Source: a virus. From it: 35,059 bases of DNA. The stretch lies in UHGV virus genome UHGV-1502588, one strand, 5' to 3'. Under the pieces are notes generated by a model. It was not told the origin of the DNA. It did no database searches and worked only from the letters and a program-made list of their open reading frames with translations. Position numbers and translations under genes: made by a program. Within the stretch, counting starts at the first letter, position 1, and every line of letters starts with the position of its first letter. Shown here in pieces: positions 17,011 to 34,008 of this stretch.

Positions 17011-17280
17011 TTAGCAGTCTCCATCCGGACGGGCCACCGCACGGCATCCCCACATACAGGCTTCCTGCATTTTTGTGGTCGCCAACGCGGCGCTACGGTA
17101 AGCAGCAGTGCGGTCAGAGAGAACTGGATCCTGCGGTAACAAATCCAACTGAATATTTCGCAACTCTCGAATAAAATCGCGACTCAGTTCTTTTAGGCGA
17201 TTCATTGCTGCGATTTCTGCATCGCTTAATTTTCTGTATCCCTTAACGGTGCTGCCATCTTGCGGTTTTGCTTCACTCAT
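17011..17280 (-). CDS. Hypothetical 89-aa protein between the scaffold and capsid genes
   Basis: ORF with good spacing and its own terminator. T7 has no counterpart at this position. Confidence 0.4.
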   Translation of the reverse strand: MSEAKPQDGSTVKGYRKLSDAEIAAMNRLKELSRDFIRELRNIQLDLLPQDPVLSDRTAAYRSAALATTKMQEACMWGCRAVARPDGDC

Positions 17281-17313
17281 TGGTCTTTCCTCTGATTAAG
17301 TTATCGTGACATG

Positions 17314-20007: not shown

Positions 20008-20232
20008 TTATGCCCCTAAGGTGTTTTTTGCTGCCTGAGCGCCAGAGGAAAGCAGGGATGAACCTGTATCCGTTGCGCCTTCGGCACCGCTTGCCAGCAG
20101 CGAGGAACCTTTCTTACGCTTCTTGCGCGCTGCGGCGTCGGCGTTCGCGGCCTTCGCTGCTGCATCGGCTGCTGCATCGGCCTCTGCCTGCGGATCCTGC
20201 TCTACGACTTTTGGTGCACCGCCTCCACACAT
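20008..20232 (-). CDS. Small virion-associated protein (T7 gp6.7/gp7.3-like composition)
   Basis: 74 aa starting MC, Ala/Asp-rich, with an ARKKRKKGSSLLASG basic/Gly-Ser tail. GGGGG RBS. Confidence 0.4.
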   Translation of the reverse strand: MCGGGAPKVVEQDPQAEADAAADAAAKAANADAAARKKRKKGSSLLASGAEGATDTGSSLLSSGAQAAKNTLGA

Positions 20233-24629: not shown

Positions 24630-24772
24630 GCAGCCACCCATTCAATCAGGGAGCAGCCAGCCCATAACACAGCTAAAATAGCCAACCAGCCAATTACGTT
24701 AACTAATGCCGCGAACCAAAGCAGAGTGCGGCGGCTGTAATGCTCAATATCTCGTTTAAAAAAATTCTTCAC
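24626..24772 (-). CDS. Possible 48-aa membrane protein (GTG start), not in the ORF track
   Basis: GGGAGA SD 7 nt 5' of the GTG. One TM helix (LLWFAALVNVIGWLAILAVLWAG). The stop overlaps the MTase ATG (ATGA). Confidence 0.3.
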   Translation of the reverse strand: MKNFFKRDIEHYSRRTLLWFAALVNVIGWLAILAVLWAGCSLIEWVAA

Positions 24773-25002
24773 GTTCGTTTCTCCCGCCAAAAATTCAATC
24801 GTTCTTTGAAAAACTCCCGGTAGCTTTCCGGCGTCGCTGCAATCTGCTCTACGATGGCCTGTCGAGTAACTGTCTTCTCAAACAGCTGTCGTATGAGTGC
24901 TGAGGCGCGCATGTCGTAGTGCTCTTTGAGCTGGTACTCCTGCGGCCATTTGGCGCGATTGAGCGGTAAGCCGGGCGGCAGGTAATCTGATTGCCCGGCC
25001 AT
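24769..25002 (-). CDS. Hypothetical 77-aa protein
   Basis: Coupled ORF in the early operon. Confidence 0.4.
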   Translation of the reverse strand: MAGQSDYLPPGLPLNRAKWPQEYQLKEHYDMRASALIRQLFEKTVTRQAIVEQIAATPESYREFFKERLNFWREKRT

Positions 25003-25005
25003 GCC

Positions 25006-25674
25006 TTACACCCTCTTGTTTTTCGCTGACTCGATGTAATAACGGGGATCCACGCTATTAAGCGTGAAATGAACCACTGGCGTATCGTCATGGCGAGTGA
25101 TGCCGACATAGTTCGACATGAACATGCTGAATACACGATCCTGAATTTCTTTAATCGTTACCTGGCATTCTGGATAGTGTTTCTGCAGCTGGCCGAGAAT
25201 GGTCTGATAAGAAAGGGTTTTACCTTTCATCACAGCGACCAGTTGCTGCGCGGTAACTTTCCCGGCACCCGGTTGATCGTCGCTGGCAAGCAGCGGGCGA
25301 ACGCTGTCGAGTACCAGGCGATGACGGCCAGCACCGCCGACACGCTGACCGGTTTTTTTGTCGAAATGCTCATTAGCGCCGGCAGACCAGACGGTGACAC
25401 CTTCGCTCAGGCGCACGGTTTTTTCGCCTTTGGAATAAATCACGGTACCGAGATGGGTTTTACGGCGACGGCCTGAAACTGCTGGCAGAGGCGCTTCGCG
25501 TTTAATTGGCTTTTGCGGAGTAATTCCCGGCACTGGTTCTGGTCGCGGTGCGGCAACAAATACAGAACGAGTACGCGCACGGGCGCCGGCGTTCATGCGC
25601 CATAAAATAACGGGAAGCCAGTTGCAGCCATCATCCGGATTAACTGGTTTTGGGTAATTTAAATTTGTGGTCAT
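25006..25674 (-). CDS. Hypothetical 222-aa protein (Pro/Arg-rich N-terminal half)
   Basis: ORF preceded by the conserved cassette GCGCCTGACCAGCG-N8-CCGAGGAAAGACCAATG. Confidence 0.5.
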   Translation of the reverse strand: MTTNLNYPKPVNPDDGCNWLPVILWRMNAGARARTRSVFVAAPRPEPVPGITPQKPIKREAPLPAVSGRRRKTHLGTVIYSKGEKTVRLSEGVTVWSAGANEHFDKKTGQRVGGAGRHRLVLDSVRPLLASDDQPGAGKVTAQQLVAVMKGKTLSYQTILGQLQKHYPECQVTIKEIQDRVFSMFMSNYVGITRHDDTPVVHFTLNSVDPRYYIESAKNKRV

Positions 25675-25712
25675 TGGTCTTTCCTCGGTTATATCGCGCT
25701 GGTCAGGCGCGG

Positions 25713-27101
25713 TTAAAATGAATCAGTGTTGTATTTCTCTGCGTATTTACGCGGTTGTTTTCGTGGTTTTGCTGCCTCCAGTTGAATACGGGTTTTCTCT
25801 TTGCCGACATGCTGATCGACGTGAAGGAAATGGCCGTTTTTAAACTCCTGGTAGATAACCGCGCCGGCGGCACTGAATCGGCTTTTCCCCAGGATGATTT
25901 CGGCGATGCCCGCCGCCGGGCTTTCCGGGTTGTAGACTTCATCGCGGTACAGAAACATGATGCTATCGGCATCCTGCTCAATAGAACCGGAATCACGGAG
26001 GTCTGACATAACCGGGCGGCGCTGGCCTGCCGGGCGGGAATCCACCGCGCGCGAAAGCTGGCTTAGTGCAAACGTCGGCGTATGCAGGCGCATAGCCATA
26101 GTTTTAAGGTTTCGGGAAATGTGGGCGATCGCCAGGTCGTTACGCTCTGCCTTAGGCTTTTTAATCAGGCCGAGGTAATCGACAACGATCATCGCCAGAT
26201 GCGGATAACGGCGCTTATGCGTCTCGGCAACGGCGCGGATTTGCTCAATCGTCAGATCGGTAGCGTCAACAATCCAGATATCGCGTCCGTTCATGGTCTC
26301 CATGGCCGCTGTAAAGCGCGCCCAGTCCTCGTCCTGCATATCGAGGGGATTACGCAGGCGTGACACCGACATGTTGCCAGAGCCTGCCAGAGAGCGTTCT
26401 ACGATTTGCGCAGCGGCCATTTCCATACTGAATATCAGCGCCCCGCCGCCGGCAGCGGTAACACCATCGACAATCTTCAGCGCAAACTCTGTTTTACCCA
26501 TGCCCGGGCGGCCAGCGACAACAATCAAATCCTGCAGGTTAATTCCGCCGGTGGCATCATCCAGTTCGTCGATGCCAGTCTTCAGGTTTCGGGTACCGGC
26601 TTCGCCGTCCATGCGTTTCTGTACCGTCTCCATGTAGGTTGGCAGCAAATCGCTGATGTGAACCGGCTGCACGTCGCCAGTATCGCCGGTCATGTCCAGC
26701 AGCTGCGCCACTGCACTTTCGACAACCTGATCGCGCTGTTCCTGATTATTGGCCTGGCGGATACCGTCAGCGCCCTGCTGCAGTAATTCAGCCATACGGC
26801 GACTGCGCCACGCCTTAACCATCTTTCCGGCGTAACCCTTCAGGTTCGGTACCGTGGCAGGCATGCGCGTAATTTCTGATAAATCAGCCAGGCTGCTACC
26901 GCCCAGCGCTTCGCTGACAAACAGCATGTCGATCAGACCGTTCGCCAGCGCCTGTTTTTTAATTTCGGAGAACGCGCGACGGTGAAACCCGATGCTGAAA
27001 GATTCTTCAGGCGTTGAGGCGATCACGTCGAATGCGTCCGGGCTTGCGCCGCCGTTCAGCAGTCCGGCCAGCACACAGGCTTCCAGTTCCTGCGGAGTCA
27101 T
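25713..27101 (-). CDS. Replicative DNA helicase, DnaB family
   Basis: Walker A GRPGMGKTEFALK, Walker B/DnaB-C motifs IVVDYLGLI, and the characteristic SRxxxxRPxxSDLRDSGSIEQDAD. 462 aa. Confidence 0.85.
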   Translation of the reverse strand: MTPQELEACVLAGLLNGGASPDAFDVIASTPEESFSIGFHRRAFSEIKKQALANGLIDMLFVSEALGGSSLADLSEITRMPATVPNLKGYAGKMVKAWRSRRMAELLQQGADGIRQANNQEQRDQVVESAVAQLLDMTGDTGDVQPVHISDLLPTYMETVQKRMDGEAGTRNLKTGIDELDDATGGINLQDLIVVAGRPGMGKTEFALKIVDGVTAAGGGALIFSMEMAAAQIVERSLAGSGNMSVSRLRNPLDMQDEDWARFTAAMETMNGRDIWIVDATDLTIEQIRAVAETHKRRYPHLAMIVVDYLGLIKKPKAERNDLAIAHISRNLKTMAMRLHTPTFALSQLSRAVDSRPAGQRRPVMSDLRDSGSIEQDADSIMFLYRDEVYNPESPAAGIAEIILGKSRFSAAGAVIYQEFKNGHFLHVDQHVGKEKTRIQLEAAKPRKQPRKYAEKYNTDSF

Positions 27102-28090
27102 AGCGAACCTTCCCGGGTTTTACGTAACGTTTCAGGTTTCATCAGGTAGTCAAAGCTGGCGCGCCAGCCGCCGTTAGCACCGAAATAAAAATCTGACGCA
27201 TCAGCGCGGAATTTTTCGAAATACCCCAAAAATGCGCCCGTGGTTTTGTTTTTCATGTGTGCGGCAAGCTGGGCGATCATTCGGCGGCGGTCGGTATCCA
27301 GTTCAGCGGCAGGCAGAACGTCAGCAAAAATTTCGTTGTAGCCGTTCATAACGGCTTCCGGATCAATGTCGGTTTCGGTCATCTCCCATGCTGCAGCGTC
27401 AGCGAGATAACCATCAAAACGGTTTACCCGGCAGATGTTCGCTGGCTTCGGCAGGCTATCGCCACGGCGGCGCCATGTGGCCAGAACCCAGCGGATAACT
27501 AACTGCAATTCATCCAGGGTGTACCCTGCCCGGGTGGTGGTCGGCGTCAGCATCATCACAAACGGTTTCAGGTCACGGCAGCGGGTACCGGTTTGCTCGT
27601 TGTAAAATTCCAGCGCTTTTTGTGCATCAGAAAGAATTATCTCAACGCCTTCCCCCTCTAAGGGGTTAGGGGTATATATATTCTCTGTAGTATTCTCTGT
27701 AAGAAAGTTTGCTGGTTTTCCACTTACTTGCTTGCTGGTTTTCCGCATTCCAGTATGTGGTTTTTCCGCATCCTTGTTTGCGGCTACAAGCGCTTGAAAT
27801 AAAACATCATTATCAATCTTGTAGAAAAGACTAGCAGGTACACCTTTCTTTTTTTCCAGCAGTACACCAATTGAGCGAAGTTTCTTACGCGCCCCCTCCT
27901 GCTCGTAACGGGAAAGCCCTGTTTCTTCCTCCCATTCTTCCTGGGTTTTATATACCCATCCGTCATCGTCGGATCGGTTAGTCCAGTAAGTCATTTGAGA
28001 CAGGAACAGTGCAGCCGTCACACCAATATTCAGACGAATGAAACTACGCTGGAAGGCGATCGGCCTGTCGAGTAATGGCAAAATATTCAT
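27098..28090 (-). CDS. Replication initiation protein (O-like, N-terminal DNA-binding domain plus conserved phage C-terminal helicase-loader-interaction domain)
   Basis: Position upstream of DnaB and coupled to it. Iterons and an AT-rich stretch lie in the middle of the gene, as in lambda O. Confidence 0.6.
   Translation of the reverse strand: MNILPLLDRPIAFQRSFIRLNIGVTAALFLSQMTYWTNRSDDDGWVYKTQEEWEEETGLSRYEQEGARKKLRSIGVLLEKKKGVPASLFYKIDNDVLFQALVAANKDAEKPHTGMRKTSKQVSGKPANFLTENTTENIYTPNPLEGEGVEIILSDAQKALEFYNEQTGTRCRDLKPFVMMLTPTTTRAGYTLDELQLVIRWVLATWRRRGDSLPKPANICRVNRFDGYLADAAAWEMTETDIDPEAVMNGYNEIFADVLPAAELDTDRRRMIAQLAAHMKNKTTGAFLGYFEKFRADASDFYFGANGGWRASFDYLMKPETLRKTREGSL
27650..27775. promoter_or_regulatory. 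Putative replication origin inside the initiator gene: AT-rich tract plus direct repeats (iterons)
   Basis: GTATATATATTCTCTGTAGTATTCTCTGTAAG, followed by GCTGGTTTTCC twice and TGGTTTTTCCGCA. The repeats are visible by eye. Confidence 0.45.
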
Positions 28091-28092
28091 CG

Positions 28093-28314
28093 TCAGATCC
28101 CCAGCGAGTCAGCCAGCTGGCGGCAGGCGATTTCGTATTCTTTCTGGGTGAGCCCCGCTTCCTGCAGGACTGCTTTGCGTAATTCGTAGCGCTCCCAGAT
28201 TGTCAGCGCAGCTGTGCGACGTTCTTCGAAAATCGATTCGATCTCTTCCATCGGGACTTGTACCCCGTTCCGGCGAAACCCGTTCCGCCAGGTGATGCGG
28301 TCTTGTGTTCTCAT
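28093..28314 (-). CDS. Hypothetical 73-aa protein
   Basis: ORF preceded by the same CCGAGGAAAGACCAATG cassette. Confidence 0.4.
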   Translation of the reverse strand: MRTQDRITWRNGFRRNGVQVPMEEIESIFEERRTAALTIWERYELRKAVLQEAGLTQKEYEIACRQLADSLGI

Positions 28315-28334
28315 TGGTCTTTCCTCGGTACAGG

Positions 28335-28781
28335 TTAAACGCTGGTCAGGCGCTGTGTTTCTCGCATCGCTTGCAATGCCTTCGCGACTTGCTGCGGGCC
28401 GTCTCTGGCCTCGAGCAATAACGCGATAATGGCCGCCGCAAATTCGCGTATAGCGACGCAGATCAAATACTGGGTGGACATGTCCAGGCGCGCGTAGCGT
28501 TCTGCCGGCAGTGCCGCTTCCATCGCTTTAGCCAGCGTCTGGGTTTTAGTTCTGGCCGCTTTCGTCTCACCACGCAGCCAGCGAAAAATCTGTTGGCGGT
28601 TATTGTTGATGGCCCGCCAGTCTGCATTTCCGTCTGCATCTTCAATCTGGTGCAGCTTCAGCACGCCAGTGTTACCACCGAGACGAAACCACATACGGCT
28701 TATCTCGATAGCAACCAACTCCTGCCCGCTTTCAGCTGCCCAGCTAAATATCTCTCGTTTCAGTTCCTCGAGGTTCTCCAC
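28335..28781 (-). CDS. YdaT-like protein (CII-position protein of Rac-type immunity regions)
   Basis: AAESGQELVAIEI...RQQIFRWLRGETKAARTKTQTLAKA parallels E. coli YdaT AAEKGQAWVANAI...QQNIYHRWLKGETKTQREKIQKL. Confidence 0.55.
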   Translation of the reverse strand: MENLEELKREIFSWAAESGQELVAIEISRMWFRLGGNTGVLKLHQIEDADGNADWRAINNNRQQIFRWLRGETKAARTKTQTLAKAMEAALPAERYARLDMSTQYLICVAIREFAAAIIALLLEARDGPQQVAKALQAMRETQRLTSV

Positions 28782-28841
28782 TTCGCGTCTCCTGTCGCTG
28801 AAAATTGATTAAGCGTAATCAGATTTAGATCACGCAGATTG

Positions 28842-29078
28842 TTAAGCTGCATCCTGTTCTGGTAGTCCATCGGTTGGCTTCCGATAAATGCTTGGGAGCA
28901 GATCGTGGGGAGTTACCTGGTAATTGGTTGCTGCTGACCATACCAATGCTGATGCAGCAGACAGAAAGCATTCCCCAGCAGCGATTCGGCTTACATAGCC
29001 TTGAGTTTTCCCAACCAGTACGGCGAACTCATGCTGACGAACACCAGATGTTTTTAAGTAGTCTTTCAGTTTCATCAT
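28842..29078 (-). CDS. Cro/YdaS-like HTH regulator (divergent from the repressor)
   Basis: HTH in QHEFAVLVGKTQGYVSRIAAGE. 78 aa. AGAGG RBS. Confidence 0.65.
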   Translation of the reverse strand: MMKLKDYLKTSGVRQHEFAVLVGKTQGYVSRIAAGECFLSAASALVWSAATNYQVTPHDLLPSIYRKPTDGLPEQDAA

Positions 29079-29100
29079 TAAGGCCTCTGTGATTGAACAT

Positions 29101-29134
29101 CATGAATATTAATAACGTTAATATTTTTCGTCAA
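29101..29134 (-). promoter_or_regulatory. PR-like leftward promoter (-35 TTGACG, 17-nt spacer, -10 TAATAT) with an overlapping repressor operator AATATTAATAA
   Basis: Sequence read directly. The same 11-mer (reverse complement TTATTAATATT) recurs at 29726 and 29761. Confidence 0.55.
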
Positions 29135-29181
29135 TACCAATGACCTTAGAGTTTGATTAATTTTGCGAATAACATGCTTCC

Positions 29182-29637
29182 ATGAGAAAGAAAACCATTG
29201 ACGCCGTTGAACGCGAAGCAGCTAAACGCCTTCGTGAAATCTGGAACGAAAAAAAAGTAACTTTACGTCTGACTCAGGAGAAGGCAGCGGAGGTGCTTGG
29301 CTTCAGCACGCAGGCGTCAGTAAGCCATTACTTAAATGGCACTACGCCACTAAATACCGATGCCACTTTAAAATTCGCCTCACTTCTTGGAGTGAAACCA
29401 GAAGAGATTCGGCCTGATCTGGCTGAAATGATGAATTACGTTAGAAAGTCAGGTGAGTATCTAGAAGATCGATCAGGACCAGGCTGGAAGCTACTTAGCC
29501 CAGAACATGCAGAACTCATTGATTTGTATGAAAGACTTCCACAGAGCGAAAAAGAACGGCATTTATCTGATTTAAAAGAGAAAGTGGAAGGTTTTGATCG
29601 TTTATTTAGAGAGTTACTAGCCACACGAAAGCAATAA
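29182..29637 (+). CDS. CI-like prophage repressor, XRE-family HTH, without a LexA-like (S24) autocleavage domain
   Basis: HTH in LTQEKAAEVLGFSTQASVSHYLNG. 151 aa. The C-terminus lacks the S24 Ser/Lys motifs. Flanked by operator repeats. Confidence 0.75.
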   Translation: MRKKTIDAVEREAAKRLREIWNEKKVTLRLTQEKAAEVLGFSTQASVSHYLNGTTPLNTDATLKFASLLGVKPEEIRPDLAEMMNYVRKSGEYLEDRSGPGWKLLSPEHAELIDLYERLPQSEKERHLSDLKEKVEGFDRLFRELLATRKQ

Positions 29638-29659
29638 CGCCTCCCCTCAAGTGACAACG

Positions 29660-29688
29660 ATCCCAGCTTCGCGCTGGGATTTTTTTTG
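29660..29688 (+). terminator. Rho-independent terminator after the repressor gene
   Basis: ATCCCAGC-TTCGC-GCTGGGAT followed by T8. Confidence 0.75.
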
Positions 29689-29725
29689 TCTAAATTTATC
29701 AACGTCATACAAAAAATATTGTCGT

Positions 29726-29771
29726 TATTAATATTTTAATGTTGACCAATAATATTATCATTATTAATATT
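29726..29771 (+). promoter_or_regulatory. Rightward early promoter (TTGACC, 17-nt spacer, TAATAT) bracketed by two TTATTAATATT operators
   Basis: TTATTAATATTttaatgTTGACCaataatattatcatTATTAATATT. Read directly. Confidence 0.55.
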
Positions 29772-29829
29772 CACCACATCAACGACGCACTAACCACGCG
29801 GCAGTTGTTCAGAAACAGTTCTGACAGTC

Positions 29830-30215
29830 CGGAAAGACGGGCAAGAATTCTTCGGGTCGCCGACAGTACGATGACATGCGGGAAAGACCGCAACGAATGC
29901 AAATTGCTGTGTGTAGTCTTGGCCCCGGCGCCCGGGGCATTTTTTTAACACAGGAACGATTTATGCGACCCTTCAGTGAAAACTGAAGCCCTCGAGGAGA
30001 GGGGCCCCGTGAGGAAAGACCGTAGAGCCTGACCAGCTCTGACACCGGGAAAGACCGGGAGGAAAGACCAACGGGCATGACCAGCCCTGACAGCCGGGAA
30101 AGACCGGCAACCTTTAGATGGCAAAAGGCCCGCACAAGGCGGGCCAGTTACCCCGAACGGTGACCAAACCATTCGGATTTTTGCCGGGAACCACCCCGGC
30201 TAGGAAAGACCAATG
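29830..30215. repeat. Array of about 9 GGAAAGACC copies, including a tandem 46-bp duplication (30008..30103) and a stem-loop GGCCCGC-ACAA-GCGGGCC
   Basis: Visible direct repeats: GGAAAGACC-N5-GCcTGACCAGCyCTGACAsCGGGAAAGACCGG, twice in tandem. No convincing ORF. Confidence 0.6.
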
Positions 30216-30269
30216 CAGGCCAGAGCCACACACTGATCGGCTCTGAGTATACATCACCAAGGAGTCGCT

Positions 30270-30593
30270 ATGGAAGCGCTTACCATCCCCGTAACTATCT
30301 ACGTTATGGCAACAACCAATCCATATCTACCAACGTCTTATCACTCATTCACCTGTGACATGTCACAGAAATATCCTGATTCGTACGTGCTTGTTACTAC
30401 CAAAACGGTAGAGATTGCCATTCCTGCTTTAGAGCCTATCGATATTATCGGGATGCAGGTTAATGCCCTTCGCGCGAAGAAAGAGCAAATATCTGCTGAT
30501 GCCAACAAACAGTTAAGCGTTATTGAAGACCAGATCCAGCAGCTGCTATGCATCGACCACTCTCCGATTGAAGAAAGCGACGTACCGTTTTAA
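30270..30593 (+). CDS. Hypothetical 107-aa protein
   Basis: Strong RBS AAGGAGTCGCTATG. First gene of the rightward operon. Confidence 0.55.
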   Translation: MEALTIPVTIYVMATTNPYLPTSYHSFTCDMSQKYPDSYVLVTTKTVEIAIPALEPIDIIGMQVNALRAKKEQISADANKQLSVIEDQIQQLLCIDHSPIEESDVPF

Positions 30594-30637
30594 TTAACTG
30601 GCGCTTGACCTGCGCCTGCAACCAAGAGGAAAGACCA

Positions 30638-32782
30638 ATGACCATCTACAACGGCTTATTCGAGCCAAAAAAATCGGCTATCAAAGACTGCGGCGCCGTG
30701 CAGCTGGCGATCGCCGTCGAAGCACCAAACAAGAAAATCGCCGAAAGCATTATCACCGGCAAACTCTGGGAATCTTACCCGGCGAACGGTGACAACTATT
30801 TCAAACCGAAGCTGTGGGAACACGAAGAAGGCCAGCCGCTGCCAACCGTTGGCCAGTTCGACGAGCTATTCGCCCAGCAACATACTTTCGACGGTGAAAA
30901 ATGGGTTTCCATCGCCGCGAACGGTACCGCCGGTGAGGAATCAAATTTACCCGCTGGTGATGATGTTATCGATCTGATGACTGTTTCTCCTAGCGAACGC
31001 TTTGCTGCCGTCCTGCTGTTTAGTACCGCGGCAATTGATGGCCATCTTTATTCTCAGGTTGTGGATTATCTGGATAACCTGAATAACCGTGATACAGAAC
31101 TGGAAGAAGAAGATCGTTTTAACCTTAACGTTCTGTGTGCTCTGCACAATAACGAACCAGTTAAGCACATGCATGTTGAAGGGCTGAATAATCTTATTCA
31201 GGGCATTTTCTCCCATTTTGAAAACCAGACTCCGGGCAAATCGGCTATTTCTCAATTTGTAAAACGCTGGCTTGAGAATCCTGGCAAACGTGAAGAAATG
31301 GTACCAGGCCAAAATTCCTCACTCGGCGCCGCCAGCACTGATACCAACGTTAAAATCGCGCCAAAACGAGGTTATAAACATACCTATGCAACACTGGTTC
31401 AGGAGATCGCTGTCGCCCTACTCCCTATTTCTCCCGACGCGCCAGTATTATCAGGCAACCTTCGCGATGCTGAGAAAATCATTGCAGACGAGCGCGAAGA
31501 TTTTAAACGTTGGTCAATGGCGCTTCGCACCACGGAGCACATTCTCAAATATGACCGAGACAGTATTTTTGGCGTAGTGCAGAACGTACCGGCAAAAGAT
31601 ACCTACCATTTCCCTGACAGCCTACGCCGCCACATTGATTCATGGCTGGAAGCAAACGGCCGCTTTGAAGAAACCGAGACAGGATCCGTTAAACAACCAG
31701 AGGCAACGCAAAATACCACCTCAAACGTGGTCGAAAAAGAGGAAGCGCCACAGCCGGTGGTAACCGATACCCAGGCCAAACAGGCGCGTGAGACGCTCAA
31801 CGATATGGGCTATGGCGTATATGCCTCTGGTGATGCAGAACAGCCAGTAGAGAAGTTAAGCGCTAAAGCGGAAACAATAGCTGATAACGCCGAGGTGCTG
31901 GCAAAGCAAATTATTCACGCTGAAAGACTGCCTGACGCTGAAGAAGTAATGAAGTCTGCCGGCGCACAGAGTATCGGACAGGACAATTTAGAACTGTGGA
32001 AACGTGTATTCAAAACTGATGAACGGTTTACTAAAGCCTTTACGCAGAACGGCGGCGGTACCTCGATCAACGGTACCTATTTAACCATGCTTGCCACTCG
32101 CGAGTTTGGGCCAAAGGGAATCGGCTGGGGTGTGGACATCCTCGAGGAACGTTTCGATATCGGTGCCCCCATTACACGCCAGGTGAAAGGGAAAGATAAC
32201 AATGCGTCATGGGAGTTAGTGCTCGACGGGAATGGAAATACCGTCAACGAGCAGCATCACGTCGTTACCGTGCGACTCTGGTACATCCTGAATGGTGTGC
32301 GCGGCGAGGAAACGGCCTACGGTTGCACGCCATACATTTACGGCAGTAAGTACGGGATCACCTGCGATGGTGAGGCAACAAAAAAATCGCTGACTGATGC
32401 AACCAAAAAGGCTTTATCTGGCCTCGGCTTCAGTGGCGATATCTTCATGGGCCTTTACGACAATCTGGAATACCGCCAGAAAAACAAGGCAGAGTTTGAT
32501 CTGAAGAATGCCAGCGAAACCGCAGAAGACGCAGCACGTCTTCGCCAGGAATTCGACGACAAACTCAGCCGTGTTGCTAACACTCTCGCCCATGGCGTGA
32601 CAGTGAACGAAATAAACGGCGTTTTCTCCCCTATCGCACGTGAAATCGATGTTCACATTAAGGCCGCACAGGCCAACGGTGACGCGCAACATGAACGTTA
32701 TCTGTCTGGCCGCTTGCGCCGACTTATTACGATTAAAGACGGCCGCATCAAAGAACTGAATAAAGCTGAGGAGAAAGCATAA
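30638..32782 (+). CDS. Large protein with a C-terminal Rad52/Sak-type single-strand annealing domain and an unknown N-terminal domain of about 470 aa
   Basis: NGGGTSINGTYLTMLATREFGPKGIGWGV...VVTVRLWYILNGVRGEETAYG...KKSLTDATKKALSGLGFSGDIF parallels the Rad52 N-domain [31 protein letters not shown]...HEDVGYG...[20 protein letters not shown]. Start at MTIYN (GAGG SD). Confidence 0.7.
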   Translation: MTIYNGLFEPKKSAIKDCGAVQLAIAVEAPNKKIAESIITGKLWESYPANGDNYFKPKLWEHEEGQPLPTVGQFDELFAQQHTFDGEKWVSIAANGTAGEESNLPAGDDVIDLMTVSPSERFAAVLLFSTAAIDGHLYSQVVDYLDNLNNRDTELEEEDRFNLNVLCALHNNEPVKHMHVEGLNNLIQGIFSHFENQTPGKSAISQFVKRWLENPGKREEMVPGQNSSLGAASTDTNVKIAPKRGYKHTYATLVQEIAVALLPISPDAPVLSGNLRDAEKIIADEREDFKRWSMALRTTEHILKYDRDSIFGVVQNVPAKDTYHFPDSLRRHIDSWLEANGRFEETETGSVKQPEATQNTTSNVVEKEEAPQPVVTDTQAKQARETLNDMGYGVYASGDAEQPVEKLSAKAETIADNAEVLAKQIIHAERLPDAEEVMKSAGAQSIGQDNLELWKRVFKTDERFTKAFTQNGGGTSINGTYLTMLATREFGPKGIGWGVDILEERFDIGAPITRQVKGKDNNASWELVLDGNGNTVNEQHHVVTVRLWYILNGVRGEETAYGCTPYIYGSKYGITCDGEATKKSLTDATKKALSGLGFSGDIFMGLYDNLEYRQKNKAEFDLKNASETAEDAARLRQEFDDKLSRVANTLAHGVTVNEINGVFSPIAREIDVHIKAAQANGDAQHERYLSGRLRRLITIKDGRIKELNKAEEKA

Positions 32783-33584: not shown

Positions 33585-33809
33585 ATGCTACGTTGGCAAC
33601 CAGGTGTAGTTTTACTTTCAGAATTCGATATCAAAATTGGCAGGCTATCAGCCAGCGTTAGAAAGAGGACTCTGACCCAGTCCGATATCCAGCGCGCTTG
33701 CGATGCAGCAGACAACGCTATAGCCGGCATGCTGAGGAAAGACCATGAGACACGATCACGACATCATCACCAGAGAGGAAATGATCGAGCTGACGGGGAC
33801 GCCACTTAA
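33585..33809 (+). CDS. Hypothetical small protein (C-terminal extent uncertain; overlaps the next gene)
   Basis: GGAG RBS 7 nt before the ATG. The frame overlaps the DUF4224 gene by 65 nt. Confidence 0.3.
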   Translation: MLRWQPGVVLLSEFDIKIGRLSASVRKRTLTQSDIQRACDAADNAIAGMLRKDHETRSRHHHQRGNDRADGDAT

Positions 33810-34008
33810 ATCAAAACAATGTGAGGCGCTGCGCCGGGCCGGCATCTTCTTTATGGAAAGAGCAGATGGCCACCCTAAAACCACATGGGGCCACTTCCTG
33901 AACCCGATCAAGTACCGCGGCCAGAAGGAAGATATAACGCACGAAAATGACGAACCTGATTTTGGAGCTATATTCGATGGCCGGAAAGCGAAAGAATCCT
34001 GCCGATAG
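33745..34008 (+). CDS. DUF4224-like small protein adjacent to the integrase (possible excision/recombination directionality factor)
   Basis: ITREEMIELTGTPLKSKQCEALRRAGIFFMERADGHP matches the conserved LTxEELxELTG...WLRxxGIPF...DGRP pattern of integrase-adjacent DUF4224 proteins. The GAGGAAAGACCATG cassette sits at its start. Confidence 0.55.
   Translation: MRHDHDIITREEMIELTGTPLKSKQCEALRRAGIFFMERADGHPKTTWGHFLNPIKYRGQKEDITHENDEPDFGAIFDGRKAKESCR

Follow-up and report, generated by a model that had tools for sequence, protein, structure and literature searches.

The c4 antisense RNA of phages P1 and P7 is a small structured phage RNA. Through short segments left exposed, it base-pairs with complementary stretches that recur in an mRNA and thereby occludes the ribosome-binding site. 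Target and c4 share one strand, from which c4 is released by processing, and a single operon (icd-ant) is under its control. Between related phages, base changes in the RNA are matched by changes in its targets, which results in distinct specificities. The c4 RNA (immI) was reportedly described by Citron and Schuster in 1990 and 1992, the later reference being listed in PMC8546580. Here we describe a locus in the virus genome UHGV-1502588 (35,059 nucleotides (nt), analyzed at full length and termed the window) in which a phage small RNA (sRNA) is predicted to pair with a portable translation-initiation tag found before several unrelated genes. We assign a probability of roughly 0.6 to this two-part RNA regulatory circuit. 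The observations behind it are the tag itself, its phage specificity, a structured RNA specific to one strand, the complementarity of the two, and a joint switch of RNA seed and tag between two lineages. By analogy, c4 appears to be the closest described mechanism. It differs from the candidate sRNA, which is encoded antisense to a presumed decoy copy of the tag and would have five or more dispersed genes as its targets, and comparison of the two revealed no sequence or Rfam similarity.

Other phage regulators are comparable in part. T4 RegA and RegB repress translation or cleave at shared motifs in the initiation regions of many early genes. The logic of one factor and many starts is the same, however RegA and RegB are proteins and no homologue was found in the window. 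The P4 CI RNA acts on leader sites and this leads to termination. The P4 CI RNA, the cis-antisense RNAs P22 sar, lambda OOP and aQ, and BTP1 STnc6030 (review PMC12197685), and the candidate sRNA are all situated in or near the immunity region of temperate phages. STnc6030 is a prophage antisense RNA that excludes related superinfecting phages by base pairing (PMC12197685). The sar, OOP, aQ and STnc6030 RNAs act on a single overlapped gene, whereas the candidate sRNA would read a tag common to many genes. The 2025 review of phage sRNAs (PMC12197685) contains nothing comparable, and for none of these RNAs is a match to a multi-gene tag described. Literature searches with the motif strings and for multi-target phage sRNAs likewise gave nothing relevant except a coincidence with ribosomal RNA (rRNA), which is considered below.

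The closest description of such a tag appears to be the start-associated sequence (SAS), with its extended form (ESAS), of Cluster K mycobacteriophages (Pope et al. 2011, PMC3203893). The SAS and the present tag are both asymmetric, contain a Shine-Dalgarno (SD) core, are located a few nt before the start codons of various unrelated, non-structural genes, always in the same orientation, and are not found in the host genome. An inverted repeat lies directly upstream of about half of the SAS (PMC3203893), comparable to the hairpins found here. The present tag thus has the features of the SAS functional class, but its sequence is unrelated and the resemblance is one of analogy, not homology. The SAS reads GGGATAGGAGCCC and the tag here reads GAGGAAAGACC, and host phylum and phage type also differ. 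ESAS repeats show no RNA-type compensation and are thought to be DNA sites, whereas the hairpin stems in the present case covary. The authors left open whether the SAS reader is RNA or protein, and no complementary RNA gene was reported (PMC3203893).

Gene-start tags and a predicted minus-strand RNA

The 9-mer GGAAAGACC is present in 11 exact copies in the window, where 0.22 are expected (100 shuffles, largest count 2), and every copy is in the sense of the local genes. Five copies are at gene starts, 0–1 nt before the start codon, at positions 17282 (−), 25676 (−), 28316 (−), 30628 (+) and 33736 (+). The leader between cI and the early left operon contains six exact copies and one with a single mismatch. 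A sequence-only reading of the window, made before this analysis, had pointed to a nearly identical 17–18 nt segment before the genes that start at 25674, 28314 and 30638 and to a related form before the gene at 33745. This is borne out: the 18-mer CCGAGGAAAGACCAATGA is exact at 25671–25688 (−) and 28311–28328 (−) and has two mismatches at 30624–30641 (+), and GAGGAAAGACCATG precedes gene start 33745. The fifth gene-start copy (17282), where the 18-mer has one mismatch (17277–17294, −), was absent from that reading, as were the minus-strand sRNA gene and the RprA-like module at 29847–29948. The tag contains the SD (GAGG) and an invariant spacer, AAAGACC. Judging by the known anti-SD sequence, we take this spacer to have no role in pairing with the 3′ end of 16S rRNA.

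The elements noticed earlier upstream of three of these starts are GCGC-type hairpins with TGACC loops. They are GCGC-CTGACCA-GCGC before the 222 amino acid (aa) gene (25696–25710, −), AGCGC-CTGACCA-GCGTT before the 73-aa gene (28338–28354, −) and GGCGC-TTGACCT-GCGCC before the exonuclease gene (30600–30616, +). About half of the unique tag contexts in relatives have such a short GC hairpin 7–13 nt upstream. Its stem varies (GGCGC, GGGC, GAGC, CACGC, GTCGT and others) and its loop, yTGACCw, is kept. The five core pairs display 11 G.U against 2 A.C combinations in the mRNA sense (counted by eye from the stem list).

A total of 1227 copies of GGAAAGACC were counted across 171 related loci, 0–4 nt from the start codon where they precede genes, and at least eight unrelated gene families are tagged, e.g. 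exonuclease, 73-aa, DDGCxW, DUF4224/excisionase, Xis-like helix-turn-helix (HTH), 94-aa moron and Acb2/Tad1-like genes. Copy positions, including those of the intergenic copies, are conserved in about 250 related loci. Outside the prophage, 130 kb of the E. coli SK1144 chromosome contain one copy, which is chance level, against seven in the 10-kb early region of its prophage. The earlier proposal of a conserved, phage-specific regulatory cassette therefore holds, and a host-wide SD context was rejected.

The first sign of an RNA came from an alignment of the 170 nt upstream of the 107-aa gene in 28 distinct relatives. Single substitutions in the hairpins there appear as G.U pairs if these are read as minus-strand RNA and as A.C if they are read from the plus strand, and RNAalifold predicts two hairpins and a 5′ stem for the minus strand. 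A covariance model, R1, was built from a clean subset of 11 relatives with the window excluded. It was used instead of a MAFFT alignment (A2) that placed hairpin B and the terminator out of register. R1 matches the window at 30122–30217 (−) with 69.4 bits (E-value = 7e-15) and matches 60 further loci. Among 80 loci collected by way of the unrelated 73-aa protein, R1 matches 78, always on the same relative strand, and the other two contigs end before the site. A pattern scan of genome contigs gave 87 stretches; R1 scores 61–109 bits in ten of these and 37.9 in one more, all Enterobacterales, and the rest fit the approximately 70 chance matches expected.

The structure was evaluated on 51 distinct sequences. 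Of all cells, 98.2% are paired, 18 of 25 pairs are compensatory, and the covariation score is 0.538 versus 0.232 in shuffles (0/500). In a broader set with the sister lineage added, 96.9% of cells are paired, compensatory changes affect 20 of 25 pairs and the score is 0.686 versus 0.234. Slid controls pair at most 52% in the set of 51 and at most 56% over both sets. The 51 sequences contain 118 G.U against 3 A.C cells, i.e. 98.2% are paired as minus-strand RNA and 89.0% as plus-strand RNA, which shows that the RNA belongs to the minus strand. The minimum free energy (MFE) of the minus strand is −64.2 kcal/mol (z = −4.8). The locus thus displays a conserved secondary structure with compensatory changes on one strand.

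Stem 1 starts at an invariant GAUC and pairs 30208–30215 with 30231–30238. It is 100% paired with three covarying pairs, and its G.U pairs in relatives fit the minus strand only. In hairpin C, eight of nine pairs are compensatory and 99.6% of cells are paired (24 distinct stems). The G.U pair of the terminator in relatives L051 and L052 again fits only the minus strand, and the homologous hairpin with UUUUU(U) is called a minus-strand terminator in L002. The upstream target hairpins favor the mRNA sense and the sRNA hairpins the opposite strand, and GACCA in the loops of the hairpins that precede the tags is complementary to the sRNA loop UUGGUC. The predicted −10 box reads TATAAT in other relatives, or TGnTATAAT in some. 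The distance from this box to GATC is a constant 6–7 nt and stem 1 begins exactly there; the predicted sRNA start is the G of GATC at about position 30238. The GATC (Dam) site at 30235–30238 is invariant at the predicted start in nearly all relatives. Its U may be kept for methylation-dependent control, since GACC would pair better in stem 1.

No Rfam 15 family reached its gathering score in the window, the C4 and P4 CI antisense RNA family included. With E-values up to 5–10, the sRNA region gave only weak matches driven by the terminator (Trp_leader 17.7, isrB 14 and rsmX 13.5 bits). RefSeq has no annotation at the sRNA locus.

Seed and tag classes

The sRNA seed on the minus strand, CAUUGGUCUUUCCU, is the complement of the leader pseudo-start AGGAAAGACCAATG (30202–30215). 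Its columns UUGGUCUUUCCU are invariant in the 51 distinct sequences and unpaired in the MFE structure. UUGGUCUUUCCU(C) is the sole invariant unpaired stretch of the sRNA and is the complement of (G)AGGAAAGACCAA; the complementarity covers the SD and the spacer of the tag up to the start codon. Seed-only duplexes have 14 contiguous base pairs (bp) and −23.6 kcal/mol at four of the tagged starts, and the fifth reaches −22.1 kcal/mol, compared with a median of −10 kcal/mol over 199 other candidate starts. The only non-tag site at −25 kcal/mol (approximately position 20180, minus strand) is a GC-rich coding segment. Duplex energies of the full-length sRNA with translation initiation regions were uninformative, as long GC-rich partners give −30 to −54 kcal/mol everywhere.

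The seed is not the same in all relatives. Three divergent loci of a sister lineage carry the seed UUGGUCUUGCCU (G-seed), and the orthologous gene starts there carry GAGGCAAGACC; the ortholog of the 73-aa gene carries GGCAAGACC in G-seed phages. A targeted scan found at least 119 G-seed loci with 88 distinct RNAs that score 50–87 bits with R1. Gene starts at these loci display GGCAAGACC in 426 cases, GGTAAGACC in 5 and GGAAAGACC in none. Loci with the T-seed have 955 GGAAAGACC gene starts and no GGCAAGACC; the 955 are from 959 gene-start matches of the pattern GA-GGNNNGACC(0–5 nt)ATG. Seed variants at two other positions gave only four and five matches, in jumbo-phage contigs, none of which fit the model, and these are attributed to chance. 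Two exclusive classes in phages of related hosts cannot be accounted for by a host factor (e.g. ribosome, CsrA, Hfq). The tag reader must be encoded by the phage and co-evolve with the tag. Of the regulator types suggested by the sequence-only reading, a translational or a transcriptional one, a trans-acting RNA that recognizes GGAAAGACC is the best-supported reading.

The tag could instead be the operator of a phage RNA-binding protein that represses or activates translation in the manner of T4 RegA. The role of the minus-strand RNA would then be local, as a cis-antisense regulator that acts on the leader or on the first leftward gene, and the seed match would be incidental. The conserved early proteins of 73, 107 and 222 aa have no Pfam match and belong to PHROGs of unknown function, the conserved-loop hairpin in front of the tag resembles a protein-binding site, and a seed-tag match is automatic for an antisense gene. 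Weakening this explanation, no RNA-binding family was found among the window proteins (Pfam, PHROGs). The AlphaFold model of the 73-aa protein (predicted local distance difference test, pLDDT, 72) gave no PDB match with an E-value below 2.6, and the model of the 107-aa protein is unreliable and too poor to search. A separate reason would also be needed for the most conserved unpaired stretch of the RNA being the exact complement of the tag in two seed classes, and the retention of a non-coding tag copy at the sRNA locus in every relative is left unexplained. We regard a protein reader as unlikely.

A different explanation needs no trans-acting factor. The tag may simply be a good portable ribosome-binding site with an intercistronic hairpin, a module linker spread and homogenized by recombination between phages, and the intergenic copies may be scars left by lost genes. 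The tags are located at boundaries between non-homologous genes (171 loci), and the pseudo-starts open only short, unconserved open reading frames (ORFs). In relatives L004, L006, L016 and L043 accessory genes sit exactly between cassettes, one insert having a partial hairpin remnant behind it. The inserts, at +300 to +1000 from the start of the 107-aa gene, comprise one or two small genes between the 107-aa and the exonuclease genes. The accessory 94-aa gene (MDIRKLLE...) begins right behind one tag, and a second tag with a degraded hairpin is found after the gene. A recombination linker had also been put forward in the sequence-only reading, and the exact placement of the accessory genes fits it. 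However, recombination alone leaves unexplained the invariance of AAAGACC in 955 of 959 T-seed gene-start matches, although the proteins have diverged to about 50% identity, as well as the lineage-wide switch to GGCAAGACC. The two tag classes never mix within one genome, and the supposed scar at 30203 belongs to the unpaired portion of an RNA whose covariation is strong and specific to one strand. A linker without a reader is thus quite improbable.

The sequence GGAAAGACC might also mimic 23S rRNA positions G2056–C2064 (the A2058 region of the peptidyl-transferase center) and could be a decoy for a factor that targets this rRNA site. The 9-mer is identical to the rRNA sequence in the minimal Erm substrate (ACGGAAAGACCCC; PMC7449152). 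A chance match of a 9-mer in about 4.4 kb of rRNA is estimated at about 2%, the GGCAAGACC of the sister lineage breaks the identity, and no rRNA-directed enzyme is found in the window (Pfam, PHROGs). An rRNA decoy is extremely improbable, and the identity with the macrolide/Erm site (e.g. at 30013–30021) is probably a coincidence.

Several points weigh against pairing of the sRNA with the tags. By construction the seed is the antisense of one tag copy, so that the match and the joint switch are necessary but not sufficient for the sRNA model. Tags kept identical by other means, i.e. a phage protein or gene conversion, would also yield complementarity and a joint T/G switch, and the switch may have happened only once in evolution. 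Half of the seed is taken up by stem 1. The predicted promoter consists of a −10 box; the two-hexamer scan made no call and no −35 was found. The copy of the sRNA in the window is itself a weaker member of the family, with a tail of four U and the loop GUGGUU in hairpin C. Co-variation between sRNA loops and target loops, as expected of kissing-loop antisense control (CopA/CopT, c4-like), gave no signal, TAACC-loop targets being about 8% whatever the sRNA loop type, in an assignment where the loop-B pattern mis-assigned some loops. In the leader, the GAAAGA-loop hairpins described below keep GAAAGA in G-seed phages with no A/C class switch, and the G-seed leaders inspected lack the tandem array. 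A role of the array as decoy or sponge is for these last two reasons not general and is the weakest step of the proposed circuit.

The early leader and its genomic setting

The window is a lambdoid-type prophage of Enterobacterales. After the cro-like gene the minus strand has the rightward early genes, i.e. YdaT-like, the 73-aa ORF, RepO-like, DnaB-like and the 222-aa ORF. On the plus-strand side the promoter and the operator-like repeats (29709–29771) point into a 500-nt non-coding leader, and downstream of it are the 107-aa ORF, exonuclease, Gp157, the DUF4224/excisionase-family gene and the integrase. The minus-strand early promoter is TTGACG-17-TAATAT and its plus-strand counterpart is TTGACC-17-TAATAT. 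Repeats of the AATATTAAT type are found beside both divergent early promoters (29100–29135 and 29709–29771) and are likely operators of the 151-aa repressor. Coordinates are given in Table 1.

Table 1. Positions of the tags, the candidate sRNA and the surrounding features in the window
Feature	Position	Strand	Remarks
Candidate sRNA gene, ~117 nt	30122..30238	−	5′ to 3′: stem 1, single-stranded anti-cassette seed, hairpin C, hairpin B, intrinsic terminator
Predicted −10 box of sRNA promoter, TATACT	30246..30251	−	TATAnT invariant in 28 distinct relatives, flanks variable
sRNA hairpin C	30183..30200	−	Stem GCCGGG/CCCGGC and loop GUGGUU in window; loop UUGGUC in most relatives
sRNA hairpin B (CCGAAUGG-UUUGGUCA-CCGUUCGG)	30153..30176	−	7/9 pairs compensatory; loop UUGGUC in 50/51 distinct sequences
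sRNA intrinsic terminator, GGCCCGC-CUUGU-GCGGGCC then UUUU	30123..30145	−	100% paired, 3 covarying pairs
Gene-start module, exonuclease gene (30638–32782; PHROG exonuclease)	30600..30640	+	Hairpin 30600–30616, cassette 30628–30636, ATG 30638
Gene-start module, 73-aa gene (28093–28314)	28312..28354	−	Hairpin 28338–28354, cassette 28316–28324
Gene-start module, 222-aa gene (25006–25674)	25672..25710	−	Hairpin 25696–25710, cassette 25676–25684
Cassette directly before DUF4224/excisionase-family gene (33745–34008)	33736..33747	+	Pfam DUF4224; PHROG excisionase
Cassette before 89-aa Acb2/Tad1-like gene (17011–17280), late region	17278..17294	−	Pfam PF24729, E-value 9e-17
Exact GGAAAGACC leader copies	29881, 30013, 30048, 30061, 30097, 30203	+	Also a 1-mismatch copy at 29831
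First GAAAGA-loop hairpin, GUCCG-GAAAGA-CGGGC, CUGACAG in front	29827..29842	+	Repeat family D1/D5; ~50 nt downstream of leftward early promoter
48-bp tandem duplication	30007..30107	+	Tandem Repeats Finder period 48, 2.1 copies, 84% matches; repeat finder family D3
Leader pseudo-start AGGAAAGACCAATG	30202..30215	+	7-codon ORF follows
RprA-like module	29847..29948	+	Strong terminator 29922–29948 at end; GAAAGA-loop hairpin 29877–29892 inside
Operator-like repeats and leftward early promoter driving the leader	29709–29771	+	TTGACC-17-TAATAT at 29742–29770 (promoter scan); direct repeat family D6
HTH repressor gene (151 aa)	29182–29637	+	Faces cro-like gene
cro-like gene	28842–29078	−	Opposite HTH repressor gene

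About nine intergenic copies of the 9-mer had been claimed in the sequence-only reading, which is too high (see above for the count). The tandem duplication is real but has a period of 48 bp, not 46 bp, and the pseudo-start with its very short ORF is as described there. That reading had also set the array apart from CRISPR. This stands, since CRISPR direct repeats of 24–40 bp are regularly spaced by unique spacers of similar length, whereas here a 9-bp unit recurs at irregular distances (13 to 132 nt start-to-start between neighbors); the sole tandem structure is the 48-bp duplication. A coding array was rejected as well, the leader ORFs being short and frame-inconsistent.

The array had been taken as repeats of one 9-bp unit. 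The copies are instead of at least three classes: (a) linear copies of the SD type, GAGGAAAGACC; (b) hairpins NNCGG-GAAAGA-CCGNN with CUGACAG in front; and (c) the copy at 30203, which is the template-strand complement of the sRNA seed. Class (b) displays 27 distinct covarying stems across relatives. These compensating stems show that the GAAAGA-loop hairpin is what is conserved and the 9-mer is incidental there; G.U pairs favor the leader-sense strand. Hairpins of this type are at 29827–29842, 29877–29892, 30045–30058 and 30093–30108 (+), each behind CUGACA(G/U/C). Each 48-bp unit contains a linear cassette GAGGAAAGACC, a hairpin with the loop yTGACCA, CUGACAs and a hairpin with the loop GAAAGA, and one unit of this type is conserved in T-seed relatives.

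The leader array might act in cis, either in antitermination past the terminator at 29922–29948, as in lambda nut or HK022 put, or as a sponge for CsrA or Hfq. A strong terminator does lie between the promoter and the operon, and every copy has a GGA motif. The GC-stem hairpins with purine-rich GAAAGA loops, the first of them about 50 nt from the promoter, resemble lambda boxB in shape. On the other hand, an arginine-rich protein like N was not seen; the 107-aa product of the first leftward ORF is not rich in arginine and could be assigned to no family (Pfam, PHROGs). The arrangement is also not that of a lambda-type nut site (boxA and boxB, with a boxB hairpin behind both early promoters), as GAAAGA-loop hairpins are found in the leftward leader only, with no comparable hairpin after the cro-like gene, i.e. 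between it and the YdaT-like gene. No Rfam family was matched, and the module is absent from the inspected G-seed leaders, which keep the sRNA and the tags. Binding of CsrA or Hfq leaves the invariant AAAGACC and the A/C class switch unexplained. There is thus little chance that action in cis accounts for the array.

The RprA-like module scores 37.6 bits against Rfam RF00034 (E-value = 0.005), below the gathering score of 70, and membership in the RprA family was rejected. A 19-nt stretch, AAUUGCUGUGUGUAGUCUU, is identical to the RprA family consensus; behind it come a GC hairpin and a U7 tail. Positions 29902–29950 match annotated rprA in 5424 of 5426 E. coli genomes, with about 81% identity over about 50 nt. 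RprA is a host Hfq-dependent sRNA, whereas the phage module is located in an early leader, and the resemblance is confined to the 3′ module; the 5′ two-thirds are unrelated. Transcription from the leftward early promoter probably yields the module as its first terminated product, and this module could mimic or compete with host RprA. In E. coli relatives there are approximately 300 nt extra between the first hairpin and the RprA-like 3′ end (e.g. in the E. coli SK1144 prophage leader, L052:3440–3760), and this segment includes a tRNA-like T-arm (GGTTCGATTCC). A plus-strand hairpin, CAGAGCC...GGCTCTG (30222–30245), spans the −10 and start region of the sRNA. Its wobble pairs in L014 and L051 favor the plus strand, and it may be a hairpin of the 5′ untranslated region of the 107-aa gene that overlaps the sRNA promoter.

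Close relatives of the window are BUCT708/709, deposited as Stenotrophomonas phages, and prophages in E. coli, many of them in sequence type 131 (ST131). Of 5426 complete E. coli genomes, 450 (ST131 among them) carry the prophage family, which also occurs as Klebsiella-like, Citrobacter, Serratia, Raoultella and Rosenbergiella prophages. Over the leader and the sRNA region, L001 (OM816835.1) and OM816834.1, both deposited as Stenotrophomonas maltophilia phages, have about 86–89% identity to the window. Their host attribution looks doubtful, as all other relatives found are Enterobacterales. In the late region, the 89-aa ORF (17011–17280, −) has the Acb2/Tad1 hairpin domain and carries the early-gene tag; its product is likely an anti-CBASS/Thoeris sponge. 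A 77-aa ORF (24769–25002, −) has a weak match below threshold to DNA polymerase III theta (PF06440, 21.4 bits, cutoff 34.6).

A proposed two-part RNA circuit

The proposed circuit has two parts. The tag consists of an intercistronic hairpin with the loop yUGACCw, about 10 nt, GAGGAAAGACC, 0–4 nt and AUG, and is placed before at least five unrelated genes in the window, i.e. those for the exonuclease, the excisionase-family protein, the 73-aa and 222-aa early proteins and the Acb2-like anti-defense protein. The sRNA, about 117 nt, would be a minus-strand transcript whose gene lies within the leader of the leftward early operon (approximately 30238 to 30122). Pairing with tagged mRNAs would block 30S binding, and in this way a single sRNA could co-regulate genes scattered over both early operons and the morons.

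In the lysogen, where the early promoters would be off, the sRNA would silence leaky transcripts or those of an incoming related phage. Upon induction, leftward early transcription would run head-on through the sRNA gene and its promoter. The induced leader would contain three to seven tag copies and the full complement of the sRNA, so that the sRNA would be titrated and destroyed and the tagged genes released together. The tag copies of the leader may act as decoys in this step.

That morons are inserted exactly between tags suggests that the tag doubles as a recombination joint, and this would explain how new genes join the regulon. A further and more tentative proposal, on which we would not insist, is that the system is a plug-in regulon. 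Any gene that acquires the tag, the Acb2-like moron included, would come under one RNA switch linked to the lysis-lysogeny state, and the orthogonal classes UUUCC/GGAAA and UUGCC/GGCAA would be immunity specificities at the RNA level. If so, a prophage could silence the early genes of superinfecting relatives that are heteroimmune for the repressor, but only those of the same class.

The known antisense RNAs of phage immunity regions each control an overlapped gene or a single operon. What is new here is a candidate antisense sRNA regulator with a portable multi-gene tag and two classes that would be orthogonal. The mycobacteriophage SAS has been without a reader since 2011, and in the present case a similar tag and a candidate reader are found in the same genome. 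The two natural classes with matched seed and tag open the hypothesis to swap experiments. The tagged genes cover recombination, excision and anti-defense. If confirmed, the circuit would provide a compact orthogonal RNA/tag pair for engineering and would show how temperate phages co-regulate mosaic, horizontally shuffled genes at the post-transcriptional level.

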